Of a stretch of DNA of 64,000 nucleotides, positions 26,647-46,119 are shown piece after piece (within the stretch, counting starts at the first letter, position 1; every line of letters begins with the position of its first letter). The position numbers and the translations under genes are program-made. Where the stretch lies: the IMG/VR virus record IMGVR_UViG_3300042883_001293. One strand, written 5' to 3'. The notes under the pieces were generated by a model. The model saw only the letters and a program-made list of their open reading frames with translations, was not told where the DNA came from and did no database searches. Source of the stretch: a virus (Duplodnaviria > Caudoviricetes).

Positions 26647-26649
26647 TAT

Positions 26650-30347: not shown

Positions 30348-30371
30348 GATTTTATGAAAGATAAACCACCT

Positions 30372-31234: not shown

Positions 31235-31554
31235 ACTTCCATAAACTAATCATATCAAATAGATTTCTACGTTACACACCATTTTGGTGGTGGTATAGGT
31301 TGATGTCGCATGAAGGATTTCGCTTTGATGATTATCACATTTGGGGAGAATTTTGGCACTCTCTGAATGGTGGATGGTTGGATATGAACTACAAATATGA
31401 GTTTGAGAAGTTTTGGGGTAAAGGATCTTATCCACCAGAAAAGATTATTCTATCAAAAGAAAACTTTGATGCTCTTGTAGAAAAACTCAACGAACCACCA
31501 CAATACAACGAAAAGATCGCTAGAGTATTACAACGGAAAGCACCATGGGATTGA
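31231..31554 (+). CDS. Trp-rich hypothetical protein
   Basis: Coupled ORF. Confidence 0.65.
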   Translation: MNFHKLIISNRFLRYTPFWWWYRLMSHEGFRFDDYHIWGEFWHSLNGGWLDMNYKYEFEKFWGKGSYPPEKIILSKENFDALVEKLNEPPQYNEKIARVLQRKAPWD

Positions 31555-31574
31555 ATAAATACTTCCAAAAAGTC

Positions 31575-31778
31575 ATGATTACTTTCAAACAGTTTTTAGA
31601 AGAAGCAAAGAAAAAAGAAGTAGAAAAAATTCAGTCTAAAACTGGTAAACTGTCGAAAAAACAAATCATGAAAGTATTAAATTCTCAAGGTGGAATTGGT
31701 GGTGGATCGGTGAAGAAGTATGTTGATAAAAATCCAGATCGTGGTCCTCAACATTATAATTTAAGAGATAAAATGTGA
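31575..31778 (+). CDS. Small late protein (TFKQFLEEA N-terminus)
   Basis: ATAAATA at 31555-61; N-terminus typical of cyanomyophage late/virion proteins. Confidence 0.6.
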   Translation: MITFKQFLEEAKKKEVEKIQSKTGKLSKKQIMKVLNSQGGIGGGSVKKYVDKNPDRGPQHYNLRDKM

Positions 31779-31951
31779 ACGAAAAGGCAAAAATTTATTA
31801 TAATGTCTGGTGTTGTGCATATCAACGCAGACATTTGTATCGTGACACACCCAGAGAACAGAGAGAACATGCTACAATACTCATGTGCCTCCAAATGAAA
31901 GACGCCAAATGGTATCAATTTGACACTGAAAAACCAAAACATTTAAAATGA
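31775..31951 (+). CDS. Hypothetical protein (58 aa)
   Basis: Own translation; GTGA/ATGA overlaps. Confidence 0.5.
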   Translation: MNEKAKIYYNVWCCAYQRRHLYRDTPREQREHATILMCLQMKDAKWYQFDTEKPKHLK

Positions 31952-32142
31952 TCTCAATTTATGATATAATGTATGATGAACGTAAATATGGTTGGGTTGT
32001 AGATAAACGCTATGACTGGATCAATATGCTTAATAAAATGCAAAAGAGTAATCCGCAAAGATTTGTGGAGTTCAAATACTCGCAGGAAACAATTTATCAT
32101 CACATAGATAGGTTGCAACAAGAACAAAACCTTTATGATTAA
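31948..32142 (+). CDS. Hypothetical protein
   Basis: ORF track. Confidence 0.65.
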   Translation: MISIYDIMYDERKYGWVVDKRYDWINMLNKMQKSNPQRFVEFKYSQETIYHHIDRLQQEQNLYD

Positions 32143-32146
32143 TTAA

Positions 32147-32338
32147 ATGCCTAAACCAATTAAAGAAGAGTTTCCACATCCTGGATTCCCAATTAAAATT
32201 GTCCATAAAGATGGAAAGGACCTAAAGGATAAAAAAACTTGTTATTTTCAGTGTGATGCACATGCCAAAAAATACATAGAGAAATCTAAATTCAAGAAAA
32301 AAGACTACATTATTACTTACCAAGAGGATACCAAATGA
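32147..32338 (+). CDS. Hypothetical protein
   Basis: ORF track. Confidence 0.65.
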   Translation: MPKPIKEEFPHPGFPIKIVHKDGKDLKDKKTCYFQCDAHAKKYIEKSKFKKKDYIITYQEDTK

Positions 32339-32499
32339 CAACACGAACTTTTGTTGATAAGAATGGAAATTCCTGGGAGTGGGAAGAAACTCCAGAAACT
32401 GCTAGGGCAGTAGAAGAACTTTCAAAATTTGCAGGTAATTATCAGGGACCTCTGTATGCACCTCATCCTGACATAAAAAATGGAAAAAAAACTAATTGA
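32335..32499 (+). CDS. Hypothetical protein (54 aa)
   Basis: Own translation. Confidence 0.55.
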   Translation: MTTRTFVDKNGNSWEWEETPETARAVEELSKFAGNYQGPLYAPHPDIKNGKKTN

Positions 32500-32689
32500 C
32501 GACTGCTTTTACATTCAACAGAAAAAGTATGGACTCTGGTATTCAACCGATCTTGAAGAAACCGAATTGGTTACATCTCTCACTGAAGAGCAATGTGTAT
32601 CAGCGACCCGTTATGTACTTAAAGGACGGCAGGAAGGTTTCCCTGAACCCCAAAAAGTTCACGAAGGAATAGTAGGTGGAAAACTCTGA
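32480..32689 (+). CDS. Conserved cyanophage hypothetical protein
   Basis: ORF track. Confidence 0.7.
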   Translation: MEKKLIDDCFYIQQKKYGLWYSTDLEETELVTSLTEEQCVSATRYVLKGRQEGFPEPQKVHEGIVGGKL

Positions 32690-32840
32690 TTATTCATATC
32701 ATGTGCTAGACCCCACTATACCCTGGTATGAGTGGTTGTGCTACTGTGAAATCTACTGCTAATTAAATGTTGAGGGGCAATTAAATTGGAACAGATTTAT
32801 GAGGTATAGAAATTACTTGAAAGAAGTTGGTGTATCATGA
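32676..32840 (+). pseudogene. Small ORF interrupted by in-frame TAA at 32760
   Basis: Frame continues after TAA to a TGA that overlaps the next ATG (ATGA). Confidence 0.45.
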
Positions 32841-33040
32841 ATTGGTTTAAAAAATGGGGTTTTGACGAAGAAGTTCCAATGGATAATATCTATGAGAAAC
32901 TTTATGAGATGGAAGACCGAATTATTAAGTTAGAAGAAGAAAATATAGAACTTACAAATGAATTGTATCGTATGGAAAACTCTCTTGATTCCCGTATAGA
33001 TATTCTTGCTGAACGTTGTAGGATTAATTACGATGTATGA
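32837..33040 (+). CDS. Coiled-coil hypothetical protein
   Basis: ORF track. Confidence 0.7.
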   Translation: MNWFKKWGFDEEVPMDNIYEKLYEMEDRIIKLEEENIELTNELYRMENSLDSRIDILAERCRINYDV

Positions 33041-33233
33041 AACTTTAACTGAATTTGAAAGAGCACTTGCTCGTTTTGGGGATAAAGTAGGACTGATTGC
33101 TGGAATGGAAGTATCTGATAAGATTTCTCCAGAAGAAGCATATCAGATGATTAAAGAAGAATATAAAGAACTCAAATCTCTTCGCAAAATTGAAAAGAAA
33201 ACTTGGGTAAACGACACAGAAGTTGACATGTGA
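33006..33233 (+). CDS. Conserved cyanophage hypothetical protein
   Basis: ORF track; true start may be ATG 33033. Confidence 0.65.
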   Translation: MLNVVGLITMYETLTEFERALARFGDKVGLIAGMEVSDKISPEEAYQMIKEEYKELKSLRKIEKKTWVNDTEVDM

Positions 33234-33391
33234 TGGAAGATACTCTTAAAATAACAGAGAACGAGGACGGATCGTTCACCATGGACTGGGACCCAAAAGA
33301 CCCAAAATGGAAGTTTCTTAATGGGTTGACAAACAAAGAGATCCAGGTTATAGTGGAGCAAGCAATCAAGGACTACATCAATGACCTTTGA
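33233..33391 (+). CDS. Hypothetical protein (52 aa)
   Basis: Own translation MEDTLKITENEDGSFTMDWD. Confidence 0.6.
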   Translation: MEDTLKITENEDGSFTMDWDPKDPKWKFLNGLTNKEIQVIVEQAIKDYINDL

Positions 33392-34010
33392 CTACAAGAA
33401 GTATTCTCTTGAAAATCTTGAAAACTGGATGCACGATGCAATGTCTTGTGCGGAAGCAACACCTCAAGAAATCTATGATGTGATTAAAGGTGTTGTTGAG
33501 GACAACTACTATACGTACAAGCATCAAGCATCTCAAGCATATGAACTTCTTGCTCTTCTGAATGGTAATGGTAAGGGTCATATTGAAGCATATGACGCTG
33601 TAATGCGTGAGAAAGAGTATTATGAACCTTCTATGCCTCCTTGGGGACATAGTGACATGGAAGCACTTCAATACACAGAAGAAGAAATGGATGCTATGTG
33701 TGATGCTGCTAAAAAACAGGAAGATCAACGTCAAATGACATATGATGAAGCAATTGCTGCTGGTTGGACTATGACTGCTGATGGTTTCTGGATCAAAGAA
33801 TCTCCCAAACTTAAAAAAGATAAAGTTGTAAAGTGGCAACTTCCTGTTGAAATTGATGGTCCAAGTGGAGAATACTTTATTTGCTTCCCTGATGACCTGC
33901 TAGAAGCAGCAAATCTGAAAGAAGGTGATCAGGTAAATTGGGTTGACAATGGTGATGGATCTTACATCTTGACTAAAGTAACTGAACCACTTGGTATGGA
34001 TGAGTGTTGA
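33381..34010 (+). CDS. Protein with C-terminal AbrB/MazE-like domain
   Basis: GEYFICFPDDLLEAANLKEGDQVNWVDNGDGSYILTKV. Confidence 0.6.
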   Translation: MTFDYKKYSLENLENWMHDAMSCAEATPQEIYDVIKGVVEDNYYTYKHQASQAYELLALLNGNGKGHIEAYDAVMREKEYYEPSMPPWGHSDMEALQYTEEEMDAMCDAAKKQEDQRQMTYDEAIAAGWTMTADGFWIKESPKLKKDKVVKWQLPVEIDGPSGEYFICFPDDLLEAANLKEGDQVNWVDNGDGSYILTKVTEPLGMDEC

Positions 34011-34180
34011 TGATTGAAACTCTTCTTTGTGGTTACAATTTACTCTGCCATGTAAGAAACGTGGTAGAATATCCAAAAATACAAACGCCTGTGATAAAGT
34101 ATTACGAACCAGGCAAATCCTGTTATGTAAACGGAACCTTTTATACTAAATGTGAGGACAGATTAAATGGCATTAAGTGA
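34010..34180 (+). CDS. Hypothetical protein (56 aa)
   Basis: Own translation. Confidence 0.5.
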   Translation: MIETLLCGYNLLCHVRNVVEYPKIQTPVIKYYEPGKSCYVNGTFYTKCEDRLNGIK

Positions 34181-34397
34181 ATCGGTGGAGCAAAGTTTAA
34201 AAGAAGCTGAAGCAAATCTTCGTAATGCACTTGCATATGCTGCTCGTCAAGAACGACCAATGGTTTGTAGTGTAATTGCAGATATTATCAGTCGTATTGA
34301 ATCTCTACAGGCAACTGATTCTATTCTTGATAAACTTGAAAATCGCAAGTCTGGTGACAGTGGGTTTTTTGGATCTTTCTTTGATGGTAAAGATTAA
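34167..34397 (+). CDS. Conserved cyanophage hypothetical protein
   Basis: MALSESVEQSLKEAEANLRNALAYAARQERP. Confidence 0.75.
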   Translation: MALSESVEQSLKEAEANLRNALAYAARQERPMVCSVIADIISRIESLQATDSILDKLENRKSGDSGFFGSFFDGKD

Positions 34398-34492
34398 TCA
34401 TTAAGTGTTGTAACGCGATCCCAAAGAAAACATTAAGTTTCTAGATATTAATGTATTGGAATGCTAATATTGGGACACATCGCAAAAACACT

Positions 34493-34669
34493 ATGACCCT
34501 TGCAAAAACTGGAACTGCAAACCTCACTACCGAAGAATGGAATGAACTAATTGCACTAAAAGAGGCAATTAGTTATGCTCCTCAAACAGTTTCTGCAGAG
34601 AAAATGGAAAAATTCGTAGAACTTATGGTCCGCTCTCTTGAAGGAAAAGGCGATTGCACACCACGATAA
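34493..34669 (+). CDS. Hypothetical protein
   Basis: ORF. Confidence 0.6.
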   Translation: MTLAKTGTANLTTEEWNELIALKEAISYAPQTVSAEKMEKFVELMVRSLEGKGDCTPR

Positions 34670-34699
34670 AAAATAAATAAGTATTATCAAAATACAAAA

Positions 34700-34912
34700 A
34701 TGGAAAACATCGACCAACATATTCAAAAAGATAAAGAACTTCTGGAAGATCCTATGATTTCTCCACAAGCAAGAAGGCATACTGAGGAAGAACTTGAAGC
34801 ACTGAGATCCTATAAAGAGCATCACCCTAATGATAATCATGATCCAACTGCATTAGAATTGTACTGCGATGCTAATCCTAATGCCCTTGAATGCAGAGTT
34901 TATGAAGACTGA
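34700..34912 (+). CDS. Conserved cyanophage protein with CP12-like C-terminus
   Basis: DPTALELYCDANPNALECRVYED is the CP12 C-terminal signature; late promoter ATAAATA 34673-79. Confidence 0.75.
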   Translation: MENIDQHIQKDKELLEDPMISPQARRHTEEELEALRSYKEHHPNDNHDPTALELYCDANPNALECRVYED

Positions 34913-34937
34913 GACCTAAATTAAATCCTTAAAAAAG

Positions 34938-34978
34938 ACCCTCCTACACGACCATGCAGGAGGGTTTCATGCTATAAT
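34938..34978 (+). promoter_or_regulatory. Stem-loop promoter upstream of the R-M-like operon
   Basis: accctcct/aggagggt stem; extended -10 TGCTATAAT; two CATG sites. Confidence 0.55.
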
Positions 34979-34998
34979 ACCTGAAACAAACAAACATT

Positions 34999-36330
34999 AT
35001 GAAATTAAACCTTTTCATTTTAGGAGAAGAACAAGCGTCTCTTGAAATTATGACGGTTATATCTTGGTGGATTAAATCTCCTTTGAGTGTAGATGTTAAT
35101 AAAGTAAGGTTTATTCCTGTTCCGATTTATGGCAACCTTTTCTTCAAAATTGAGGGAGTTGCTCTTGAACAATATCATTCTGTTTATTATGGAATTATAT
35201 CAAAAACTGGTAATAGTTTTGTAGATTATCTCATATACGAAGGTAATACTATTCCTGAAGAGGATTCTCTTCCTGTTGCTGCACTAGAAGCAACTAAGAA
35301 TGACGGAAAAGAATCTGGAAATATGTCAGATCAACGTGCTGGTAAAAGTATTGCTCTTCGTTCTAAGTGGGAAAATATTCCATTTGGTTACTTGATCAAT
35401 CACCCAAACCCAATTAGCAAAACTGTTAAAACTTTTGGTTTGGGTCATAACTGTGCATTTGCTACTATGAAAGCACTTAGAACTGATGTTATTATTGCAC
35501 AAACAGACAAAGTAGAATTCAAGAAATATGACAATCCTATCACTTATGATTCCATTGAGAGTGTCATTGTAGCAGAAAATTCCAAACAGAAAAGGGCAGG
35601 AACTCCTTGTAGGGTGAATCGTGTTGGAAATAAGATTCAAATTCAGGCAAAATTGATTAAAAATGGTGGTAAACATGATCCTAGTGAAGGATATGTTGCT
35701 AGTCGTGCATGTTTAATTCGACATCTTGATTCAAATATTACGATTGAAATTGTCAATCACCAGCAGGACCTTCGTTACTTTCAGAGAAAGAACAATAAAT
35801 TTATCAATTGCTTAAAGAAAGTTGGTGTTACTGTCATATTTGACGATTCTTCTTATGTAATTGAGCGTGAAGATAATGTGTATGAGAAATCTTATTGGAG
35901 ATACTCAAAAACTGGTGAGAAAATGTGCAGCATTGTGTTAGAGCACATTTTGATTAGTAAAGGGCACCAAATTATTTTTACGAATCATGCTGGTTGTGGT
36001 AAATCGTGGAAAAAAATCAATGGAGAATACTTCCCGACCAAGAAATCGAAAGGTATTCCCGACCTCGTATCTTACAATCCCACAAATGCAACTCTGTATG
36101 TAATTGAGGCAGAAACCACTAAAAACTATAAAAAAGGATTGGCACAGGTGCGTGATCAAAACTTTGATACTTTTATTGAAAGGGAATTTCTTCCACACTT
36201 CCCAAAAGATACTAAAGTTTTGAAGTATCTCTGCACTTATGGACAATATAATCAAGAACCAGAGGTTCTGTTCAACTTGACAGGGGACTTTCAAATGAAT
36301 TATAATGAGAATGCTGAGGTGATTCAATGA
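34999..36330 (+). CDS. Putative Type IIS-like restriction endonuclease (two candidate catalytic centres)
   Basis: N-terminal D...EATKND..ES.N and C-terminal PD-X14-EAE motifs; translationally coupled to two MTases. Confidence 0.55.
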   Translation: MKLNLFILGEEQASLEIMTVISWWIKSPLSVDVNKVRFIPVPIYGNLFFKIEGVALEQYHSVYYGIISKTGNSFVDYLIYEGNTIPEEDSLPVAALEATKNDGKESGNMSDQRAGKSIALRSKWENIPFGYLINHPNPISKTVKTFGLGHNCAFATMKALRTDVIIAQTDKVEFKKYDNPITYDSIESVIVAENSKQKRAGTPCRVNRVGNKIQIQAKLIKNGGKHDPSEGYVASRACLIRHLDSNITIEIVNHQQDLRYFQRKNNKFINCLKKVGVTVIFDDSSYVIEREDNVYEKSYWRYSKTGEKMCSIVLEHILISKGHQIIFTNHAGCGKSWKKINGEYFPTKKSKGIPDLVSYNPTNATLYVIEAETTKNYKKGLAQVRDQNFDTFIEREFLPHFPKDTKVLKYLCTYGQYNQEPEVLFNLTGDFQMNYNENAEVIQ

Positions 36331-37295
36331 GATACATTGGTAACAAAACTAAATTACTTGATTTTATTCATGGAGAGATTCAGTCTGTCTGTGGAGATAT
36401 CTCTACGTCTAAATTTTGTGATTTGTTTTCTGGATCTGGTTCTGTAGCAAGATATTTTAAGCAGCATTGTGCCGAAGTTATTGCTAATGATCTTGAAGAT
36501 TATAGTTACGTTTTGTGTCAAAATTATATTGGTAATAATGAGGTGTTTGAATATCAAAAATTGATCGATTACCTTAATAGTCTTCCTGGAGTAAAAGGAA
36601 GGTTCTATGAAAACTTTTCTCCAGCAGCAGGACGCTCATTTTTCACAGAGCATAATGCACAAAAGATTGACGCAATCCGAATGGAGATTGAGAATCTTAA
36701 TTTACCCAAAAATCAATACTATTTTTCCCTTGCTTCATTGATAGAAACTGCAGATTCATATGCTAATACCACTGGTGTTTATGGAGCATACTTAAAGAGT
36801 TTTAACGCCAGATCTAGTAAAAATATGAGTTTAGTTGCTCACCCTCATGTTCCTGGCGGAATAGGTAAGGTCTATAAGAAAAACGCAAACGATCTTATTC
36901 ATGAGATTAATGGAGATATTCTTTATCTTGATCCTCCATATAACACTAGACAGTATGGTGCCAATTATCACATTCCAAATTACATTGTAAATTACTTTGA
37001 TTTTGATTACAATCAAGACTCAAAGACTGCTCTTGGAACTTACAATAAATCTGAGTTTTCGCAAAAGAAGTCCGTTAAGATTGCATTCGAAGATTTGATA
37101 TCTAATGCAAAATATAACTATATCTTTGTTTCGTACAATAATGAAGGTATTCTTTCCTTTGCTGATATTGAGAAGATCATGACGAAATATGGGAAATATG
37201 ATCTTAAAGAAAAGGAGCACAAAAGATACAAATCAAATACAAACAATTTGCAACAATCAAAAGTAGTTGAACACCTTCACGTATTGATAAAATGA
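36327..37295 (+). CDS. N6-adenine DNA methyltransferase (M.NlaIII / M.FokI-N-domain-like, D12 class)
   Basis: MRYIGNK, DLFSGSG, YGAYLK, LYLDPPYNTRQY..NYH, SYNNEG. Confidence 0.88.
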   Translation: MRYIGNKTKLLDFIHGEIQSVCGDISTSKFCDLFSGSGSVARYFKQHCAEVIANDLEDYSYVLCQNYIGNNEVFEYQKLIDYLNSLPGVKGRFYENFSPAAGRSFFTEHNAQKIDAIRMEIENLNLPKNQYYFSLASLIETADSYANTTGVYGAYLKSFNARSSKNMSLVAHPHVPGGIGKVYKKNANDLIHEINGDILYLDPPYNTRQYGANYHIPNYIVNYFDFDYNQDSKTALGTYNKSEFSQKKSVKIAFEDLISNAKYNYIFVSYNNEGILSFADIEKIMTKYGKYDLKEKEHKRYKSNTNNLQQSKVVEHLHVLIK

Positions 37296-38233
37296 CTTTT
37301 ACAGAATTTGTGCTATCTCATGAGATAGTTAAGAATCCCAAAGTTAAAACAAGAACAAATACTGCTTCTCCATTTATTCAGTGGGTTGGAGGAAAACGTT
37401 CTCTGATAGAGAAATATAATCCTTTTATACCAATAGAATTTAATCGTTATTTTGAACCATTTTTGGGTGGTGGTGCAATGTTTTATCATATGCACTCCAA
37501 ATATGGAAATACAAAAGAATACTTTCTTTCCGATTTAAACGAAGAACTTATTTTAGTTTATAATACTGTAGTTTCAAATCCAAATGAAATTGTACAATTA
37601 ATTAATTACATGAGCGTAAGACACTCTAAGGAGTTTTATTATTCTGTACGCAATTATGATAGGATTGAATTGGCACCTAAGAAATATCAAAAGAATTTTG
37701 ATATTATTCAAGTTCTGACTCCAATAGAAGTTGCTGCAAGATTTATCTATTTGAATCTAACATGCTTTAATGCATTGTATAGAGTCAACAAAGATAATTT
37801 GTTTAATGTGCCAATCGGAACTTCACTTAAAAAAGACATATCTGATAATGGATTATTAAAAGCATGTTCTGAAGTTTTATGTAATGCAACAATCAAATAT
37901 CAATCTTACCAATCTATGACACCAGAGAAAGGTGATTTTGTATTTCTTGATCCACCTTATGCACCAATTTCTGCAACTTCAGATTTTACTTCTTATACTA
38001 CAGAAGGTTTTGGGTTAGAGAATCAAAAGGAGTTGAAAGAGTATTGTGATAATTTAAATTCCAAAGGTGTAAAGTTTATTCTTGCAAATTCTAACTGCGA
38101 ATTTATCCGTGAATTATATAAAAATTATACACAACACACTTTTTCATTGAATAGAACACTGAATTCAAAAAAGGAATTGAGAAAGCAAACCACAGATAAT
38201 GAGATTATGGTGACTAATTGTGACACTATTTGA
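37292..38233 (+). CDS. dam: Dam-family N6-adenine DNA methyltransferase
   Basis: WVGGKRSL, YFEPFLGGGA, FNALYRVNK..FNVP.G, FLDPPY. Confidence 0.88.
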   Translation: MTFTEFVLSHEIVKNPKVKTRTNTASPFIQWVGGKRSLIEKYNPFIPIEFNRYFEPFLGGGAMFYHMHSKYGNTKEYFLSDLNEELILVYNTVVSNPNEIVQLINYMSVRHSKEFYYSVRNYDRIELAPKKYQKNFDIIQVLTPIEVAARFIYLNLTCFNALYRVNKDNLFNVPIGTSLKKDISDNGLLKACSEVLCNATIKYQSYQSMTPEKGDFVFLDPPYAPISATSDFTSYTTEGFGLENQKELKEYCDNLNSKGVKFILANSNCEFIRELYKNYTQHTFSLNRTLNSKKELRKQTTDNEIMVTNCDTI

Positions 38234-38277
38234 ACTGTCCACTCTGCCCTCGACTCTGCCCCACTCTGCCCTATACT
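38219..38277 (+). promoter_or_regulatory. Early dyad element + -10
   Basis: tgtgacact-atttga-actgtccac; actctgccc x3; TATACT 29 bp downstream. Confidence 0.7.
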
Positions 38278-38302
38278 AAAAAGGTAATCAACGAAACGCC
38301 TC

Positions 38303-38716
38303 ATGGCAACCCGCTCCCGCATTGGTATCGAACTCGCTGATGGTTCTATTCTTTCTGCGTATTCTCATTGGGATGGTTATCCTGAATGGATGGGACGCAT
38401 TCTTCGCACTCACTATAACACCAAAGAGAAAGTAGCAGAACTGATTGATGGTGGTGATATGAGTTCTCCTTGGACTACTTCCCGTTGGGATACTAAACTC
38501 AACGAAGAGTATGGTCCCGAATACTATTCTCAACGTGGTGAGAATTGCCCTCCTCGCCTTGATGCTGATCTGGGTGAGTATCTGCTCCCCGATAATAGTG
38601 AAGAGTATGCTTATGTCTTCCGTAATGGTGAATGGGTGTGCTACAATATGAATCAGTTTGACGATTCAAAACTCCCTGAAATCGTTGAAATCCCTTCTGC
38701 TGCTCTTGCTGTTTGA
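38303..38716 (+). CDS. Conserved phage early protein (YxHWDGYP family)
   Basis: MATRSRIGI...SHWDGYPEWMG. Confidence 0.8.
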   Translation: MATRSRIGIELADGSILSAYSHWDGYPEWMGRILRTHYNTKEKVAELIDGGDMSSPWTTSRWDTKLNEEYGPEYYSQRGENCPPRLDADLGEYLLPDNSEEYAYVFRNGEWVCYNMNQFDDSKLPEIVEIPSAALAV

Positions 38717-38718
38717 TA

Positions 38719-38931
38719 ATGATTGATCAAAAACCTGTCACGATGGAATTCACTTTTGAAGAGCATGATTTTCTGAATGACATCTTGTGCCATGCATCAG
38801 ACGGAATATATGTGGCATGTCCAAATCTTCATGAAATGCCAGAAGACTCTGAAATTCGCCAACGTTTTAGAATGCTTGAACAAATGAGGCATAAATCTAA
38901 TCAACTTTGGAAAAACCGTTTTGATAAATGA
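38719..38931 (+). CDS. Hypothetical protein
   Basis: ORF. Confidence 0.6.
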   Translation: MIDQKPVTMEFTFEEHDFLNDILCHASDGIYVACPNLHEMPEDSEIRQRFRMLEQMRHKSNQLWKNRFDK

Positions 38932-39203
38932 CTATGAAATTCACTGATCTTGATTTCCATTCACACAACATTATGCCAGATGGTATTGCTGCACGACACT
39001 TTTTTCAGAATGGATATGGTATGAGCGTGGTGAGTTTTCCTGGTTCATATGGTGCCGAAGAAGGACTGTATGAGGTGGCAATTCTCAAAGGACTTGAAGA
39101 GGACTGGGAAATCTGCTATGATACTCCCGTCACGGATGATGTAATTGGTTATCAATCCGTGGAGGATATTGATAATCTTCTTTCACAAGTTGAATCTCTT
39201 TAA
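38928..39203 (+). CDS. Conserved phage protein (F.NGYG.SV...GLYEVA family)
   Basis: Motif recognised. Confidence 0.75.
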   Translation: MTMKFTDLDFHSHNIMPDGIAARHFFQNGYGMSVVSFPGSYGAEEGLYEVAILKGLEEDWEICYDTPVTDDVIGYQSVEDIDNLLSQVESL

Positions 39204-39205
39204 TT

Positions 39206-39739
39206 ATGACACAACAATTTAATATTGGTGATATTGTCACCAAAAAACATGGTAAAAAACCTGCTGAAATTGTCAGTAAAGGTTGGTATACGTCAGATTC
39301 TTGGACTTGTCGGTATCTTCATTCCAAACAATCTTTTACTGAATATGCATCTGATCTAAAACTTTACGATGAGGAAACTGAAATGACTGCTGACACTAAA
39401 ACTCTCTATTCTTTCACTGTTGATGGTGCTGTTGCCTATGGCACTCACATCGGCACTAACAGTAGCAACCAATACCTGATTGAAGAAAAAGGTACTGGTA
39501 AGATTCACGTCTTTGATAAGAAAGACCTGGAAGAAGTTGTGCCTTATACTTTCAGTGCAACTATGGGTGGTAAAGAAACCCATTATGTTGGTACTCCTGG
39601 TGCTCTGAACAAAGGTGATGTGCTACTCTACACTGGTTCCAGCACTCCCCAGGTTGCCGTGGTAACTGGTGTGGATACCAAGAACAAAAGCGCCCGATCC
39701 AAGTTCAAGGGTGCTAAACTGGTGACTGAGGCAATCTGA
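39206..39739 (+). CDS. Hypothetical protein
   Basis: ORF track. Confidence 0.75.
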   Translation: MTQQFNIGDIVTKKHGKKPAEIVSKGWYTSDSWTCRYLHSKQSFTEYASDLKLYDEETEMTADTKTLYSFTVDGAVAYGTHIGTNSSNQYLIEEKGTGKIHVFDKKDLEEVVPYTFSATMGGKETHYVGTPGALNKGDVLLYTGSSTPQVAVVTGVDTKNKSARSKFKGAKLVTEAI

Positions 39740-39786
39740 AAACTGGCACAGGGGCACTTCACAGGTGCCCTTTGATGCCTTATAAT
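39727..39786 (+). promoter_or_regulatory. Early dyad element + stem-loop + -10
   Basis: actggcaca; gggcac/gtgccc; TATAAT 30 bp downstream. Confidence 0.7.
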
Positions 39787-39809
39787 ACACAGGTAATCAA
39801 CGAAATCCA

Positions 39810-39989
39810 ATGAAACTTGTCGGTCTTGCTTTTGGTGTAATTGTCCTTGCTGTTGCAGGACTATTCTTTGAAGCATGGTTGCTTGGAGTGATTCTGTCTT
39901 GGTTTGGTGTGACACTGACATTCTGGCAGAACTTTGCCATTATCTTCCTTGCTAATCTTATTTTCAAGTCTAACGTATCTTCTAAATGA
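39810..39989 (+). CDS. Small integral membrane protein (59 aa)
   Basis: Own translation; wholly hydrophobic. Confidence 0.6.
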   Translation: MKLVGLAFGVIVLAVAGLFFEAWLLGVILSWFGVTLTFWQNFAIIFLANLIFKSNVSSK

Positions 39990-40291
39990 AACCTCTTCTT
40001 GCTATTGTAGGTGGTGTTGCTCTTCTTTGGGGTATTGCCTACCACCAACTTATCTTCACTGCGTTCTTTGGACCTAAGTTTGAGAATGTTCGCAGGAATA
40101 CTTTTGAGCAATCAAAGTCTTTCCGAACTGGTGCTGTTCAAGAACTGCAAAATATGCAGTTTGAATACATCAAAGCATCACCTGAACATAAGAAAGCACT
40201 TGCTGATATTATTCGGCATCGTGCTACTGAAGTTCCTGCCGATGCTATGCCTTCTGACCTCCAATCTTTTATCTCTAATCTTCCTAACTGA
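39986..40291 (+). CDS. Membrane-anchored protein
   Basis: N-terminal TM. Confidence 0.7.
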   Translation: MKPLLAIVGGVALLWGIAYHQLIFTAFFGPKFENVRRNTFEQSKSFRTGAVQELQNMQFEYIKASPEHKKALADIIRHRATEVPADAMPSDLQSFISNLPN

Positions 40292-40293
40292 TT

Positions 40294-40779
40294 ATGAAAC
40301 CTTTTGTTGCTCTTGCTTCAATCGCACTTTTGAGTGTAACTCTTGTTGGTTGTGAAGAATATGGAGATTCTGATGATAAGCAACGTGCTCAACAAGAACG
40401 CATTCTACAAGAAGGCACATCACAAACTGGTATGCCTGCCATCAAGAACTTTCGTGAACGCAAACTCTTGAAGCAAATTATTGAGATGCGTGACCAGGAT
40501 GGTTTGGTGACTTATACTTATACTGTTCCTGAAACTACTGGTCGTCCAGTGTTCCTGTGCAACTCTATTGGTTATGGTCTGCCTGCTGCAACACAATATA
40601 CCAGCCCAGAAAAAGTAGAGTATCAGGGAACAACTCTTCCACAGGCAGATCCTAATGGTCTCTTCTCTCCTGATAGTGCTGAAGGAACTTGGGTGATGTG
40701 TTCTGATCCTAGTGGTAGTGGTAAGACCCGCCCTGTTTATGTTGAACCTCGTATTATTGTTTCTCCCTTTAAACTCTGA
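40294..40779 (+). CDS. Lipoprotein
   Basis: Lipobox LVGC at residues 17-20. Confidence 0.7.
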   Translation: MKPFVALASIALLSVTLVGCEEYGDSDDKQRAQQERILQEGTSQTGMPAIKNFRERKLLKQIIEMRDQDGLVTYTYTVPETTGRPVFLCNSIGYGLPAATQYTSPEKVEYQGTTLPQADPNGLFSPDSAEGTWVMCSDPSGSGKTRPVYVEPRIIVSPFKL

Positions 40780-40784
40780 CTATT

Positions 40785-41192
40785 ATGCAACAAGATAATA
40801 CTATGCGTAACGCCACAATTATTGGTGTTTCGTTCATTCTCTCTCTGTTTATTATCAACGCAGTGGTTGGTCCTCTCTATAATGTGTGGGCACAATCACT
40901 ACAAGGTAAGGCAGAACTGCAAAAGGCAGAATATACTCGCCAGGTTGCAGTTCTGGAAGCACAAGCAAAGAAAGATTCTGCACAACAACTTGCTGATGCT
41001 GAGGTGATTCGTGCCACTGGTGTTGCCAAAGCAAACCAAATCATTGGTAATTCGTTGAAAGACAACCGTGAGTATCTGCAATACCTGTATATCACTGGTC
41101 TGGAAGAAGGATCCAACAAAGGTAATGTGACGATCTATGTTCCTACGGAGAATGGTCTTCCTGTGCCAACTCTCTCCTACGATAGGAAATAA
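40785..41192 (+). CDS. Membrane protein with SPFH/prohibitin-like coiled-coil tail
   Basis: TM, then AEQ/AE-rich coil, YLQYLYI...TIYVPTE. Confidence 0.6.
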   Translation: MQQDNTMRNATIIGVSFILSLFIINAVVGPLYNVWAQSLQGKAELQKAEYTRQVAVLEAQAKKDSAQQLADAEVIRATGVAKANQIIGNSLKDNREYLQYLYITGLEEGSNKGNVTIYVPTENGLPVPTLSYDRK

Positions 41193-41197
41193 ATAAT

Positions 41198-41253
41198 AAT
41201 ACCTGATTTGACCGCAATCTATCAGGATGGAGGAGAGAAATCTCCTCCTTTTT
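41198..41253 (+). ncRNA. Candidate antisense sRNA D (cognate to 41288)
   Basis: ATAAATA 41189-95; stem cctgat/atcagg; terminator ggaggaga-gaaa-tctcctcc-T5; 41203-16 complementary to 41268-81. Confidence 0.6.
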
Positions 41254-41255
41254 AA

Positions 41256-41263
41256 TATAAATA
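41256..41263 (+). promoter_or_regulatory. Late promoter TATAAATA
   Basis: Exact consensus. Confidence 0.7.
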
Positions 41264-41287
41264 TATGTGCGGTCAAATTAGAGTAGA

Positions 41288-41863
41288 ATGAAAGGCACTA
41301 TCTATTGTGTCCATTGTATTTCAACAGGAAAGAAATACATAGGACAAACAATACAAAAATTACAATACAGAATAAATGACCACTTTTGTAGGTCTTCTAA
41401 CTCACAATATAAATTCCATCGTGCTATAAAAAAGTATGGTAAAAATAACTTCATTTATGGTGTGATTGAAGAATGTGATTTTGAATTGATAAACGAAAAA
41501 GAAATGTATTGGATAAGAATTTATGATACATTTAAGAATGGATATAATAGTGATACTGGTGGAATGAATGGTAGGTTGCTTTCAGAAGAAACTAAAAGTA
41601 AAATACAAAAGAAAGCACATAAACAAAACAACCCAAGATATGGAGTAAAACTTGATAATGATTTGAAGGAAAAAATAAGAGAATCAAATGCAGATTATGA
41701 ATATTGTATAGTGGAACTTGAAAACAACATCACACATAAAACAAACAGTTTAAGAGATTTTTGTAAAAGATATGATTTAAAAAGAGCAAATCTAACAAGA
41801 ACTTTTACTGGAAAATATAAACAGCATAAAGGTTTTAGAATGGTAAGTAAGGTGCCACTTTAA
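41288..41863 (+). CDS. GIY-YIG homing endonuclease with NUMOD/HTH-like C-terminus
   Basis: GTIY...KYIGQT...R...H...E...GYN. Confidence 0.85.
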   Translation: MKGTIYCVHCISTGKKYIGQTIQKLQYRINDHFCRSSNSQYKFHRAIKKYGKNNFIYGVIEECDFELINEKEMYWIRIYDTFKNGYNSDTGGMNGRLLSEETKSKIQKKAHKQNNPRYGVKLDNDLKEKIRESNADYEYCIVELENNITHKTNSLRDFCKRYDLKRANLTRTFTGKYKQHKGFRMVSKVPL

Positions 41864-41910
41864 GAACTGGCACACTACACTCCCACAAGACCCTCCTAAT
41901 GCACTATAAT
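41851..41910 (+). promoter_or_regulatory. Early dyad element + -10
   Basis: ggtgccact-ttaaga-actggcaca; TATAAT 30 bp downstream. Confidence 0.75.
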
Positions 41911-41932
41911 ACATTCATACAAAACAAACCCA

Positions 41933-42076
41933 ATGACTGACCCACAAATCACTGACGAACAAATCAAAAAGATTTTTGAAGACTTTTGTGAGGAAGATGG
42001 TACTATGGACTTTGGAAACTTTCGTATGGCAGTAAGAAAAGTACAACATACAATCGGACAAAATGCACTCAAATGA
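41933..42076 (+). CDS. Hypothetical protein (47 aa)
   Basis: Own translation after promoter leader. Confidence 0.5.
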   Translation: MTDPQITDEQIKKIFEDFCEEDGTMDFGNFRMAVRKVQHTIGQNALK

Positions 42077-42115
42077 CCGAAGGTGGGATGCCTGTTCCCA
42101 CTTTGCAAATGAACA

Positions 42116-42174
42116 AGTGACACTTTGATTAGTGGCACACTAGGGCATCTGGAGCGATCTGAATGCCCTATAAT
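42116..42174 (+). promoter_or_regulatory. Early dyad element + stem-loop + -10
   Basis: agtgacact-ttgatt-agtggcaca; agggcat/atgccct; TATAAT 29 bp downstream. Confidence 0.75.
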
Positions 42175-42199
42175 ACTTTCATACACAAGGGAACACCCC

Positions 42200-42649
42200 A
42201 TGAGCACCACGACCTTCGCTGATTACGCTGCTGCTTCTGAGGCACGTAAGGACATTGCTGCTGCTGTTCTGTCGCATACCTATGCTCTCTGTGAGGCATT
42301 GCGCCAGAACTTCATTGATTATTCTATTCGTAGTCATCAGAAGTTTGTTGATGATGCCGATACTCATGAGTATCATCAGAAACAAATTGATAAACTGAAG
42401 CAAGGCACTTGTGATTATGATTATGATTTCTACCCTGAAACGGGTCGCAAGTATCATAAGATCATTATGAATGCGAATGGTAGCAGAAGCGTTCATTGCT
42501 TTATCGACAAGAAAACAGGACAAATTTACAAAAGCGCCAGTTGGAAAGCACCTGCCAAAGGTGTTCGGTATGATCTTCGCATTATTGAGCAACGTGAATG
42601 GTTGTTTGAGAATGCCGATTGGTCTGGTGGATACTTGTACGCAAAATGA
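42200..42649 (+). CDS. Conserved phage early protein (GRKY.KI...HCFID..TG.I.K.ASWKAPAK family)
   Basis: Motif recognised. Confidence 0.8.
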   Translation: MSTTTFADYAAASEARKDIAAAVLSHTYALCEALRQNFIDYSIRSHQKFVDDADTHEYHQKQIDKLKQGTCDYDYDFYPETGRKYHKIIMNANGSRSVHCFIDKKTGQIYKSASWKAPAKGVRYDLRIIEQREWLFENADWSGGYLYAK

Positions 42650-42713
42650 ATATGACATCAACTGATAAACTTATCTTTGTTTCTTCGTTCATTTGGTTTT
42701 TGCACTGGGGTCA

Positions 42714-43190
42714 ATGTCTGTTCTTAAAATTAGCGGATACGGTTATCACAAGCGCACCTGTGAGGATGTTGCCTCTTGGTTTCTGAATAAGTTCTTTCCA
42801 CGACATAAAATCTATGTGGAGATTGTACATCGTGGATTGAGGCGTGAGGGTGTTCATGGATGGTGCGATGTACTGGAAGGAACCTATCGCCCCAGAGAGT
42901 TCATTATTGAACTGAATACCCATATGCATGAAGAGTTGTATATAAAAACTCTTTTGCACGAACTGACGCACTTGCGGCAGTGGGTGGTGGGTTCTCTCCG
43001 CCAGAAACGTGGAAAAATGTATTATGGTAAAGAATGCGTTGAAGATATTGAGTATTGGTTTCAACCACATGAAATAGAGGCACGGGAGCAAGAAGAAACA
43101 CTATATCTGGAGTACCTGCTGGAAACACGGGGTGTGCCAGTCCCACAAGTGGTACATTTCTTTCCCAACCGCCTGCTGCAGGCAGTATAA
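42714..43190 (+). CDS. Putative zinc metallopeptidase (HEXXH)
   Basis: TLLHELTHLRQW...PHEIEA. Confidence 0.7.
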   Translation: MSVLKISGYGYHKRTCEDVASWFLNKFFPRHKIYVEIVHRGLRREGVHGWCDVLEGTYRPREFIIELNTHMHEELYIKTLLHELTHLRQWVVGSLRQKRGKMYYGKECVEDIEYWFQPHEIEAREQEETLYLEYLLETRGVPVPQVVHFFPNRLLQAV

Positions 43191-43191
43191 T
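43133..43191 (+). promoter_or_regulatory. Early dyad element + -10, wholly inside the 3' end of a CDS
   Basis: tgtgccagt-cccaca-agtggtaca; TATAAT 29 bp downstream. Confidence 0.7.
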
Positions 43192-43214
43192 TACAAGGTA
43201 ATCAACAAACGCTC

Positions 43215-43412
43215 ATGATCACACGCCAGTAAATGATTGCAAACATCGAAAAAATGGTTGAAGCAAACAAATTGTATCATTCCATGGATAATGAGGATCA
43301 ACAAGAACTTCTTGAAAATTTCTACTCTGAAGATTGTCACGGTAATATTTCTTGGGATGATTATGTGTTTTCAAATTGCTTTCTGAACGAACTCACCGAA
43401 GGTAACAACTGA
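43215..43412 (+). pseudogene. Small ORF with in-frame TAA at codon 6 (or restart at 43233)
   Basis: Leader ggtaatcaacaaacgctcATG matches other early leaders; MITRQ*MIANIEKMV... Confidence 0.45.
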
Positions 43413-43414
43413 TC

Positions 43415-43573
43415 ATGATTACCGACACCACTCAAGACAAGCAGATTCGCCGCTCTATTCTGAAAGCAGTTGAATCCATGGATCTGCGCCTGCTGCAACG
43501 TATTGCTTATGAGGTACGTTGCGAAGAAATGGGTATTTACCCTGATGGTTGGAAACTTTACCCCGAAAACTGA
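43415..43573 (+). CDS. Hypothetical protein (52 aa)
   Basis: Own translation. Confidence 0.55.
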   Translation: MITDTTQDKQIRRSILKAVESMDLRLLQRIAYEVRCEEMGIYPDGWKLYPEN

Positions 43574-43575
43574 TC

Positions 43576-43779
43576 ATGCAACTCTCTGCTCAATCTGTCT
43601 CCAAGATCGCTGATGCACTCAAACCAGCAGTGTTTGAGTACATCTATGCTGATGAAGGATTTGTTGAATATATGCAAACTGCTGTAGTTGATGCAATTCG
43701 AACCACAATGGGTGATATGGACGAAGATTTACTTTTTGAACTAGGTATGTTAATCTTTGATAGGATCGAACTGAAATAA
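43576..43779 (+). CDS. Conserved cyanophage hypothetical protein
   Basis: MQLSAQSVSKIADALKP. Confidence 0.7.
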   Translation: MQLSAQSVSKIADALKPAVFEYIYADEGFVEYMQTAVVDAIRTTMGDMDEDLLFELGMLIFDRIELK

Positions 43780-44093
43780 TGATTGAAGCACTGATTGCTG
43801 GACTTACCTGTGGTATTGCTACATACTACGGAGTAGGAGACGGATTTCATGGTCAAACAACTGCTAACGGTGAGCGGTTTGATGCTTATCATTGGACTGC
43901 AGCTCACCCTTATCTACCTATGGGCAGCAAAATTAGGGTAACGAACCAAAACAACGGAAAACAAGTAATTGTTCGTGTGAATGATCGTGGTCCATATTCT
44001 CATGCTGATTTGGATCTGTCTTATGCTGCCTTTGCTCATATTTCTTCTCCACGCAAGGGCAATGCTGTTGTTTGTTGGAGAGTCGTCGGGTGA
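43779..44093 (+). CDS. rlpA: RlpA-like double-psi beta-barrel lytic transglycosylase
   Basis: ATYYG...TTANGERFD...TAAHPYLPMGSKIRVTN...VRVNDRGPY...DLS. Confidence 0.85.
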   Translation: MIEALIAGLTCGIATYYGVGDGFHGQTTANGERFDAYHWTAAHPYLPMGSKIRVTNQNNGKQVIVRVNDRGPYSHADLDLSYAAFAHISSPRKGNAVVCWRVVG

Positions 44094-44221
44094 ACAAAGA
44101 TAAACTCTATCTTACACTCACTCTTGTTGTATTTTTTCTACTTGACATTGCAATCATAATTGGTATATTATTACACGGTAAAGCAAACTTCGCTGAACTC
44201 ATCAAACATTTGCACTCATGA
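44090..44221 (+). CDS. Small membrane protein (43 aa)
   Basis: Own translation, hydrophobic; overlaps both neighbours by 4 bp. Confidence 0.5.
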   Translation: MNKDKLYLTLTLVVFFLLDIAIIIGILLHGKANFAELIKHLHS

Positions 44222-44601
44222 AACAACTTTTCCTTGTTGCCGCAGTTCTTTTTGCAACTCCTACCGTTGCACAAACTGCACCACCAAAACCTAAAGTCTA
44301 TCGCTCCTTTGCATATGAAACTCCTTGTGTATTGGAGGCAGGACTTCAAACCTATCCTGACATTTGTAAAGTTGTCGAAACCCGTGAAACTGGCGGTGCT
44401 CTTCGCACTCGAAACATTTTCTCCAACAAACATGGTTTGACGATCAAGGGACGATTTGACAAAGAAAAAGGTTATATGACATGGGATAGTCATAACAAGT
44501 ATGAGTATAAGTGGGAGTATAAAGTCGGTGGTAATCAAGAATCTGGGGCATGGACTTATGTAATGCCTGGTTTTCTACTTCAAAACGTATCTTGGGATTA
44601 A
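44218..44601 (+). CDS. Secreted hypothetical protein
   Basis: Signal peptide-like N-terminus. Confidence 0.7.
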   Translation: MKQLFLVAAVLFATPTVAQTAPPKPKVYRSFAYETPCVLEAGLQTYPDICKVVETRETGGALRTRNIFSNKHGLTIKGRFDKEKGYMTWDSHNKYEYKWEYKVGGNQESGAWTYVMPGFLLQNVSWD

Positions 44602-44603
44602 AT

Positions 44604-44807
44604 ATGAAAGAAACCAATGTAAATCTAAATGTGCAGGAGATTGGTATTATTCTTTCTGCAATTCAAAATCTAGAAAATATAGACGAAATTCACATTGCCA
44701 GAGAATATGGAAGTGCATCGGCACTGTACAATAAACTTTACACAGTCTGGGAGCGAATGGACAGATCGGAAACTGGACTACGGTACGACGTGGTGCCCTC
44801 GTTTTGA
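44604..44807 (+). CDS. Hypothetical protein; C-terminus overprints a promoter element
   Basis: ORF. Confidence 0.65.
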   Translation: MKETNVNLNVQEIGIILSAIQNLENIDEIHIAREYGSASALYNKLYTVWERMDRSETGLRYDVVPSF

Positions 44808-44815
44808 CCTATAAT
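44757..44815 (+). promoter_or_regulatory. Degenerate early dyad + -10
   Basis: atggacaga-tcggaa-actggacta; TATAAT 29 bp downstream; leader ggtaatcaag shared with 38284, 39792 and 43197. Confidence 0.6.
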
Positions 44816-44840
44816 ACAAAGGTAATCAAGGGAACACCTC

Positions 44841-45101
44841 ATGCAAATGCCCCAACTGACCAGCAAGGACGGCAACATGATTGTTGACTTCTATCCCGTG
44901 AAGACTCCGTTTGGTGATATTTCCGAAACTTGGGTTCTTCGTTCCGTCACCTTTGCTCCGCACGGGCAAGTGTCTAAGAAGTTTCTAAACAAAGTGGAAA
45001 TGCTTCTTGATATTCGTGAGCGTATGGCATACGGTTATGCTCAAACTGGTGACAACTCAAATCTTCCCCAAATTGGAAATCCCATGGCAGGTGCTTGCTG
45101 A
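44841..45101 (+). CDS. Conserved cyanophage early protein
   Basis: MPQLTSKDGNMIVDFYPVK. Confidence 0.7.
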   Translation: MQMPQLTSKDGNMIVDFYPVKTPFGDISETWVLRSVTFAPHGQVSKKFLNKVEMLLDIRERMAYGYAQTGDNSNLPQIGNPMAGAC

Positions 45102-45250
45102 TGAAAACTTCCTACTGGTTTCTTGCGATCATAGGCATTCTGATGTGGAATGGAATGATGATCAAACGTGATCAAGAGTTATTCAAGGCATATGATAAAG
45201 TCTGTGCCGAACTGCCACAACCTCACCCCGATTGCCGTTACGCCAAATGA
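45101..45250 (+). CDS. Small membrane protein (49 aa)
   Basis: Own translation. Confidence 0.55.
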   Translation: MKTSYWFLAIIGILMWNGMMIKRDQELFKAYDKVCAELPQPHPDCRYAK

Positions 45251-45459
45251 ACAAAGACGACATTAAAGAATTCATCAGAGCATTTATGGATTTCAGTAAA
45301 CATGCCGAAGTTCAAGAAATGTATCATAATGCCAAGCAAGAATATCTGAGTTATGAACTGCGTAAGAAAGAGTCTAAAATGATCATTGAAAGTGAAATTG
45401 AACAAAAAGCAGCGGAGTTAGAGGTGACGGTTGATTATTATATGGAAGAGTTCATGTGA
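45247..45459 (+). CDS. Hypothetical protein
   Basis: Ends ELEVTVDYYMEEFM. Confidence 0.65.
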   Translation: MNKDDIKEFIRAFMDFSKHAEVQEMYHNAKQEYLSYELRKKESKMIIESEIEQKAAELEVTVDYYMEEFM

Positions 45460-45629
45460 TGAATGATCAGACCAAACTGATTTTTGCACTGATGCAGATT
45501 GATAATCTTACCTCTCTGATTGAGGGTAATGAATATCAATCTTTTCTGTATTCACACCTGATTTCAATGCAAGTTGAACTTCAACGTCAATTGACAAATC
45601 TTACACATTCGACTACAATTAAGAAGTAA
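45459..45629 (+). CDS. Hypothetical protein (56 aa)
   Basis: Own translation. Confidence 0.55.
   Translation: MNDQTKLIFALMQIDNLTSLIEGNEYQSFLYSHLISMQVELQRQLTNLTHSTTIKK
45591..45619 (+). promoter_or_regulatory. sigma70-type promoter
   Basis: TTGACA-17-TACAAT. Confidence 0.7.
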
Positions 45630-45642
45630 TTTAAAACAGAAA

Positions 45643-45873
45643 ATGAAGTATCTTTACATCGTTAACTACTGGGTTCCGTTTCCCTCTTCGGAATATGGTG
45701 GCACAATCAGTTTAATTGCAGAATCTGATATGGAAGCATTTGAGATTCTTTCCAAATCTGACGATTTTGACGATAGTTATACAGATCGCATCATGGAGCG
45801 TGTGGTGAATGCTTACAAGTTCGCTCTGGCAGATGAAGAGAAATCGCGTATTATTGATATCTTCATTACTTGA
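45643..45873 (+). CDS. Conserved cyanophage hypothetical protein
   Basis: YWVPFPSSEYGG. Confidence 0.75.
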   Translation: MKYLYIVNYWVPFPSSEYGGTISLIAESDMEAFEILSKSDDFDDSYTDRIMERVVNAYKFALADEEKSRIIDIFIT

Positions 45874-45876
45874 TAT

Positions 45877-46119
45877 ATGAAATACGAACCGCAAGTCAAC
45901 GATTATGTAAAATGGAACAACGGCAAAGGCGTTGAAGGGTGGGTCTATTTTAAGGATAAAGAATATATTACAATTGAAACTTCCGTATGGCAAAAGGACG
46001 ATGAGAACTATGCCTGCTGTTCACTTCATCGAAATGATCGTGTTCTAGTTTTGTGTTATAGAGATCAATGGAATGAACTTAAGTGTATAAAGACAAGGGA
46101 ATCCATTTATGAAACCTAA
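45877..46119 (+). CDS. Conserved cyanophage hypothetical protein
   Basis: ORF track. Confidence 0.7.
   Translation: MKYEPQVNDYVKWNNGKGVEGWVYFKDKEYITIETSVWQKDDENYACCSLHRNDRVLVLCYRDQWNELKCIKTRESIYET

Follow-up and report, generated by a model that had tools for sequence, protein, structure and literature searches.

A portable RNA module upstream of homing-endonuclease genes in a freshwater T4-like cyanophage lineage, and support for its exchange between GIY-YIG and HNH nucleases

Why should nuclease genes of different protein families in one phage genome be preceded by the same RNA architecture? The question is raised by copy D of a ~100-nt module in the IMG/VR virus record IMGVR_UViG_3300042883_001293 (Duplodnaviria; Caudoviricetes), the whole 64,000-nt stretch of which is called the window here. 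The DNA is that of a freshwater T4-like cyanophage whose nearest isolate is Synechococcus phage S-SRM01 (Kyanoviridae), at ~82% DNA identity over part of the query only. Copy D follows the stop of a protease-subunit-like gene (40785-41192; phrog_11227) and precedes a 191-amino-acid (aa) open reading frame (ORF) at 41288-41863, and copies A to C lie upstream of the other three nucleases in the window (the trio, with genes at 14009, 20341, and 26683). A first-pass annotation proposed that the module either moves between nuclease genes or is ancestral to them. Comparison with IMG/VR loci and contigs (designated by L numbers, such as L001) supports the first of these, that is, exchange of the module as a whole between GIY-YIG and HNH nuclease genes. 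The features of copy D and its nuclease are as follows.

41189-41195, + strand: box 1, ATAAATA (AATAAATA including the preceding base), which fits the cyanomyovirus late-promoter motif NATAAATA; promoter role predicted.
41200-41216, + strand: 5' arm of the long-range helix, from RNAduplex, RNAfold, and covariation.
41202-41226, + strand: hairpin 1, stem cctgat (41202-41207)/atcagg (41221-41226), with a local fold of -7.0 kcal/mol.
41229-41253, + strand: intrinsic terminator (stem-loop 41229-41248) from a terminator scan, with an 8-bp stem (5 G-C), a 4-nt GAAA loop, then TTTTT; function predicted.
41256-41263, + strand: box 2, TATAAATA, a predicted T4-type late promoter, from a motif search.
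41268-41285, + strand: 3' arm in the nuclease leader, tgcggtcaaattag, a bulged a, then gta, from RNAduplex, folding, and covariation.
41288-41863, + strand: GIY-YIG homing endonuclease of 191 aa, whose catalytic domain is I-TevI-like and which also has a NUMOD3 motif and, C-terminally, a helix-turn-helix-like motif for DNA binding that HNH nucleases have too, from Pfam, PHROGs, and PDB 1LN0; activity predicted.

IMG/VR was scanned with a pattern of box 1 and its spacer, a gap of 45-75 nt, and TATAAATA; of the 121 matches, 20 were true modules, defined by an energy of -19 kcal/mol or lower; the median for the rest was -6.4 kcal/mol. The ORFs behind the scan modules belonged to the family of the copy D nuclease (D family), the trio family, a third GIY-YIG group (phrog_15526, phrog_314), and an HNH-type group (phrog_655). 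In a four-way alignment, L014 (GIY-YIG, D family) and L195 (HNH) had 95 of 100 module nucleotides the same and identical arms, with both flanks different, while L195 and L245 had the upstream gene end and the HNH ORF (73% aa identity) in common, with different modules. The L245 module is ~96% identical, by eye, to that of L084, which belongs to the trio family. Module similarity in this alignment starts at box 1 and stops at the ATG, and these breakpoints indicate that the module is exchanged as a unit and not inherited with the nuclease.

The HNH homing endonuclease (phrog_655, with an I-HmuI NUMOD-like C-terminus) is encoded at L195:1145-1853, L245:4366-5071 (minus strand), and L288:12131-12813, in each case after the end of an hsp20-like gene (..HHKRKDYL). 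At this locus the module is either D-type or of the L084 type, which is similar to copy B; the occurrence of either type implies that the module was replaced at one locus.

The comparison of nuclease and module phylogenies that the first-pass annotation had proposed points the same way. With nuclease families marked on a tree of 35 modules, the label switches 12 times against a minimum of 3, and the D family formed a single clade in 0 of 200 bootstrap trees, its modules nesting among trio-family and HNH-linked ones. Approximately unbiased tests were borderline (P = 0.072 for the 35 modules and 0.075 for a smaller set). Vertical inheritance of the module with the nuclease family is not favoured by the nesting and the four-way recombinants, the approximately unbiased tests alone being only borderline. 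The proposal that the module moves is thus upheld by the alignment and the tree, and the proposal that it is ancestral is not favoured.

Within 41189-41290, each of the elements previously listed (stem, loop, terminator, TATAAATA, and leader) is present. Box 1 had been missed; it lies ~6 nt 5' of hairpin 1, is found in all four window copies, and includes the TAA (41190-41192) with which the upstream protease-subunit-like gene ends. It reads ATAAATA in 18 of 21 modules in the set found via protein homology and CTAAATA in the other three (L020, L089, and L096), and it furnishes the stop codon of the upstream ORF in 18 of 33 modules. Of the 19 ATAAATA motifs in the window, 17 are on the + (coding) strand, where the two boxes of each of the four nuclease modules account for eight. 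TATAAATA occurs five times, always on the + strand, and four of the five are box 2 of a module.

The 5' arm runs from the last box-1 spacer bases through the 5' half of the stem of hairpin 1 into the loop, of which it takes the first nine bases. The 13-nt loop, ttgaccgcaatct (41208-41220), begins with the seed ttgaccgca; its 3' part, aatct(ct) (window 41217-41220), is kept in copies B and C and in many loci, and lies outside the long-range helix. These conserved bases could be a protein-binding site or have a role in loop geometry. The G+C-rich stem-loop followed by a U run at 41229-41253 is that of a Rho-independent terminator, and its stem shows compensatory differences from the L091 and L096 terminators. 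Box 2 lies between the 5' arm and the 3' arm, as in the nested-late-promoter scheme of T4, and, applying T4 late-promoter geometry, its transcript would start near 41269 and have a leader of ~18 nt. Within the 3' arm is AGAG, a purine-rich stretch, and 2 nt separate the end of the arm from the ATG at 41288. Leader tgcggtcaaattag (41268-41281) is complementary to ctgatttgaccgca (41203-41216), and the count given by the first-pass annotation (13/14 complementary plus G:U) agrees with a core helix of 14 pairs, 13 Watson-Crick and one G:U. Past a one-base bulge, three extra pairs lengthen the helix to 17 bp.

The possibility, raised earlier, that this match is no better than shuffled controls did not hold. 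The copy D arm duplex has an energy of -24.7 kcal/mol, compared with -9.2 ± 2.5 kcal/mol for 2000 dinucleotide-preserving shuffles (RNAduplex; z = -6.1), none of which was as low. Chance complementarity of the arms is ruled out by the shuffles together with covariation. For each of the four window copies, RNAfold gives as the minimum-energy structure of the read-through RNA the long-range helix with the terminator inside it. With a covariance model built from 21 modules, these four copies and no others were recovered in the window, each on the + strand (93.4 bits and E = 6.5e-14 for copy D); the sole minus-strand match scored 23 bits, compared with 69-107 bits on the + strand.

To assess covariation, 21 distinct modules were aligned with MAFFT, with no fitting to structure. 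In this alignment 92% of cells pair, compared with 26-44% when the partner column is slid, and double-sided changes are seen in 12 of the 17 helix pairs; the covariation score is 0.609, versus 0.236 in shuffles, and none of 500 shuffles reached 0.609. Every folded module (24 sequences, 23 distinct) forms a helix of 14-21 bp with an energy of -20.7 to -29.2 kcal/mol, the arm sequences differing. Among these, the G of a G:U pair lies in the 5' arm 15 times and in the 3' arm twice. Since a G:U pair becomes a C.A mismatch on the other strand, this bias points to the pairing working as + strand RNA rather than as DNA. The local stems of hairpin 1 also covary between modules (gctttta/taaaagc, gtctgt/acagac, ccttaa/ttaagg), so both the local and the long-range folds are kept. 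Nearly all trio-family loci (n = 17) carry the module, with different arms. Contigs L201 and L231 each have two modules with different arms, upstream of nucleases from different families; multiple orthogonal copies per genome thus seem the rule.

How different, then, are the nucleases behind the same module? The 41288 protein matches Pfam GIY-YIG (PF01541) at 4.4e-7, exceeding the curated cut-off, NUMOD3 (PF07460) at 1.4e-4 (22.2 bits against a cut-off of 20.4), and the catalytic domain of I-TevI (1LN0) at 3.5e-4. For the conserved Tyr, Tyr, Arg, Glu, and Asn positions of the catalytic domain, the 1LN0 alignment shows TIY, KYIGQT, an Arg nine residues after the Gly (by eye), NEKEMYWI, and NGYN. 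PHROGs matches were phrog_314 (2.6e-27), phrog_7168, and phrog_5123. The C-terminal 32 aa resemble the L195 HNH protein (E = 9e-5), the only part that the two proteins share. Among themselves the trio nucleases share 49-55% identity, and with the copy D nuclease 15%; a Pfam search with them gave no match, and BLASTP of the 41288 protein against the copy A and copy C nucleases detected no similarity (E > 1). These results bear out the first-pass view that the 41288 protein is not a close paralog of the trio. Calling its subfamily unrelated was slightly too strong: the subfamily is a different one, but the copy A and C nucleases match phrog_314 weakly (6.6e-10 and 4.3e-8), and this match, common to D, A, and C, places them in one superfamily. 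With the D nuclease in another subfamily than the trio, the module is common to more than one subfamily.

The D-family nuclease of L018 (1501-2085) matches the window protein at 75% identity over residues 1-107; its C-terminal half is basic and unrelated, as if the DNA-binding domain had been exchanged.

All 20 close homologues of the copy D nuclease in IMG/VR (72-99% aa identity) have the module, with compensatory arm changes. L001-L017 occupy the same genomic site as the window and have unchanged arms, and L018/L019 and L020 are at other sites, with re-coded arms that still pair (tagacggca/tgccgtcta and gttgacggca/tgccgtcaac). In contrast, the module architecture was found in none of the 58 distant homologues examined (≤47% identity, other contigs), whose duplex energies are mostly -4 to -11 kcal/mol; L030, L035, and L065 are stronger and have a different architecture. 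Absence of the module from homologs of the subfamily, which would have counted against the first-pass proposal, was thus not what the close homologues showed. A general trait of this GIY-YIG subfamily is ruled out by the 58 distant homologues. The presence of the module in close and not in distant homologues indicates that it follows the phage lineage rather than the protein family.

The upstream gene was found at 80 loci, 78 of which are without the nuclease and without any part of the module; the remaining two are contigs already known to carry the nuclease, and these have the module. At the empty sites, the upstream stop runs directly into a GTGACA-N10-TGGCAC dyad or another gene. These sites, lacking all of the module, rule out that it is part of the upstream host gene, and, judged by occupied and empty loci, the module is part of a mobile nuclease cassette. 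Presence/absence polymorphism at a fixed site between conserved genes is a trait of GIY-YIG homing endonucleases that this locus displays. Comparison with the empty sites also locates the point of insertion.

42079-42120, + strand: remnant of the protease-subunit-like gene, namely its original 3' end (..GGMPVPTLQMNK, then stop), by comparison with empty sites L100, L104, L130, L150, and L160.

The remnant lies 3' of the nuclease and of a 47-aa ORF (41933-42076). This surviving gene end downstream indicates that ~900 bp (a block of roughly 41176-42078) were inserted into the last codons of the gene, which now has a new tail (..LSYDRK) and a stop supplied by box 1. The original gene end overlaps the GTGACA-N10-TGGCAC dyad, remnant and dyad together spanning 42079-42138. 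A second dyad, GTGCCA-N10-TGGCAC (41852-41873), has its left arm within the 3' end of the nuclease ORF, and a TATAAT follows it at 41905-41910. It thus looks as if the cassette supplies a restart signal of its own to the genes downstream, although a consensus promoter scan listed no sigma-70-like site around this TATAAT.

What would the module do? On balance we favour a ~100-nt portable cassette that acts as a T4-style translational mask on read-through RNA, relieved on late transcripts, and that carries an insulating terminator. We also consider it fairly probable that this freshwater T4-like cyanophage lineage has placed the cassette before free-standing homing-endonuclease genes of several families. 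From the arrangement of the elements we infer promoter use, transcript ends, and an effect of the module on translation. The intrinsic terminator would halt most transcription arriving from the upstream (early) gene. Any read-through RNA would hold both arms, and the seed in the hairpin-1 loop would meet the leader; the helix would then grow by displacing the local stem, and its 14-17 bp would mask the leader up to 2 nt before the AUG. With the leader masked, we propose, ribosomes could not load and no early nuclease would be made. Late in infection, gp55-type RNA polymerase would initiate at TATAAATA, ~6 nt before the 3' arm, and the resulting mRNA, being without the 5' arm, would have an open leader from which the nuclease could be translated. 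The predicted unpaired probability over positions -14 to +3 of copy D is 0.55 in the late transcript and 0.26 in the read-through transcript.

Several observations weigh against this mask. The AUG lies outside the helix, the Shine-Dalgarno-like AGAG is weak, and the predicted drop in accessibility is only about twofold. A simple mask has no need of the conserved local 3' arm of hairpin 1, nor of box 1, which is about as conserved as box 2, and the conserved aatct(ct) loop bases, unpaired in the helix, are left unexplained by a model acting in cis. When assembled contigs of one lake metatranscriptome run were compared with 26000-45900, one contig (2.6x, ~94% identical) covered 41244-41534. No contig bridged hairpin 1, and because contigs cannot show transcript ends and DNA carry-over is possible, this comparison is uninformative either way.

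The features that the mask leaves over (the conservation of box 1, the hairpin-1 local stem, and the unpaired aatct) would fit a cognate small antisense RNA, which we regard as a less probable though serious alternative. Box 1 would be a second late promoter with a start at ~41201, and the transcript would end at the terminator, giving a ~53-nt RNA that consists of hairpin 1 and the terminator hairpin. The loop seed of this RNA would pair in trans with the 5' end of the box-2 mRNA and so limit nuclease translation. Such a pair would resemble a type I toxin-antitoxin system, and it can coexist with a mask in cis. In the type I systems tisB/istR-1 and zorO/orzO, an adjacent small RNA with ~18-20 nt of complementarity to the 5' untranslated region of the harmful gene blocks ribosome access. 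Those small RNAs are divergently transcribed and have been shown experimentally, whereas the RNA considered here is hypothetical and in tandem, and its target encodes a nuclease, not a membrane peptide.

The case for this small RNA begins with box 1, which, besides fitting NATAAATA and being ATAAATA in most modules found via protein homology, stands as far from the hairpin (~6 nt) as box 2 does from the 3' arm. The predicted shape is classic, a 5' hairpin with a loop seed followed by a terminator, and the covariation of the local stem means that hairpin 1 is itself under selection. A co-fold of the small RNA with the late mRNA has an energy of -48.1 kcal/mol, compared with -33.1 kcal/mol when they are folded separately (a gain of ~15), and the four window copies are mutually specific, with cognate pairings of -24 to -26.4 kcal/mol and non-cognate ones of -4 to -15 kcal/mol. 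However, hairpin 1 and arm specificity fit a mask in cis equally well. The change to CTAAATA at box 1 in L020, L089, and L096, with arms intact, speaks against such an RNA, and the double use of box 1 as the upstream stop codon is a possible cause of its conservation. As of a 2010 review, no T4 trans-acting small RNA had been functionally characterised (PMC3014915). That each homing-endonuclease cassette encodes its own ~53-nt cognate small RNA, forming mutually specific small-RNA/leader locks, four in the window, that are swapped as units, is correspondingly a tentative proposal.

We consider it quite improbable that the module is a DNA-level element only, with its inverted repeat and its pair of direct repeats (a box with its spacer) serving as recombination or homing signals for movement of the cassette, and with the RNA pairing as a by-product. 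The module breakpoints do fall at box 1 and the ATG, and composite terminator-promoter motifs called PeSLs have been proposed to mediate modular shuffling in T4-like phages (PMC4122927). The one-sided orientation of the G:U pairs, however, would leave C.A mismatches in a DNA cruciform as on the opposite strand, the arms vary freely while still pairing, where a protein or recombination site would keep its sequence, and the minus strand scores poorly in the covariance model. An RNA-processing site, with the helix as target of a double-strand-specific RNase that separates the upstream mRNA from the nuclease mRNA, is very unlikely: a helix of 14-21 bp enclosing the terminator would suit it, but this is short for RNase III and has bulges, and the constant reach of the helix to the ribosome-binding region would be left unexplained.

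The logic of the favoured translational mask is already known from T-even phages. In I-TevI, I-TevII, I-TevIII, segB, and Aeh1 mobE, a helix sequesters the ribosome-binding site, and the position of a late promoter leaves late transcripts without that helix's 5' strand (PMC2988022; PMC3014915). As in these genes, and in genes e, soc, and 49, the helix of our module would conceal the ribosome-binding region when transcripts are long and of the early or middle class, transcripts from the late promoter TATAAATA would be without the 5' strand, and the scheme is used by homing endonucleases of both the GIY-YIG and the HNH family (PMC2988022; PMC3014915). Unlike the T-even masks, the present module has strands ~50 nt apart that enclose a complete intrinsic terminator and a promoter, a 5' strand pre-folded as arm and loop of a conserved local hairpin, and a second late-promoter-like box before the whole element. 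It is also a discrete homologous sequence family swapped between genes, which goes beyond a shared logic.

Also close are the hairpins described by Dassa et al. in 2009 (PMC2677866). In that paper, hairpins are reported in 15 of 16 endonuclease 5' untranslated regions, 10 of them with TATAAATA, at fractured-gene loci in cyanophage-like metagenome DNA; two conserved motifs pair on the stem, and the hairpins precede GIY-YIG and Vsr-like endonucleases. The presence of TATAAATA, the pairing of two conserved motifs, and the cross-family use are as in our module, whereas the text of the paper names no enclosed terminator, upstream box, covariation analysis, or module exchange. Compared by that text alone, the two may well be the same element family, and the cross-family pattern is already published there in outline.

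The PeSL motifs of T4-like phages are likewise short, conserved, composite regulatory cassettes; they sit where genes meet in plastic parts of the genome, and modules are shuffled by exchange at them (PMC2839356, PMC4122927), and our module too marks the breakpoints, at box 1 and the ATG, of modular exchange. PeSLs, however, combine a stem-loop with an early sigma-70-type promoter, where our module has the late promoter TATAAATA and an RNA lock, and long-range pairing to a downstream leader is not described for them (PMC2839356, PMC4122927). A consensus scan of the + strand over 41189-41290 found no sigma-70-like site, so the early promoter that defines a PeSL is lacking. The antisense RNA CfrI of cyanophage S-PM2 is another RNA element of a T4-like cyanophage tied to a homing-endonuclease gene (PMC2984593); the late promoter NATAAATA of cyanomyoviruses is reported in the same paper. 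CfrI is an opposite-strand RNA of ~225 nt that spans the endonuclease gene and psbA (PMC2984593), whereas the hypothetical small RNA here would be ~53 nt, run in the same direction from an adjacent promoter, and pair through 14-17 nt. New in this module are the terminator between the arms, the seed hairpin folded in advance, the additional box, and how deep the covariation goes, together with direct evidence that whole units pass between GIY-YIG and HNH genes.

Homing endonucleases must be restrained from harming their own phage and from upsetting neighbouring genes. The module would be a compact, self-contained answer that blocks incoming transcription, silences leakage, and confines expression to late infection, and it is mobile as a unit and reused by GIY-YIG and HNH nucleases. 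Its natural arm variants are a ready set of compensatory mutants for the study of RNA-RNA recognition. If the small RNA exists, the modules would make up a family of regulators, each specific for its own target, that act on selfish nucleases as type I antitoxins do. No trans-acting small-RNA family would have been linked to homing endonucleases in T4-like phages before it. With its clean breaks at the box and the ATG, the module provides a concrete case of regulatory-cassette shuffling in phage genomes.

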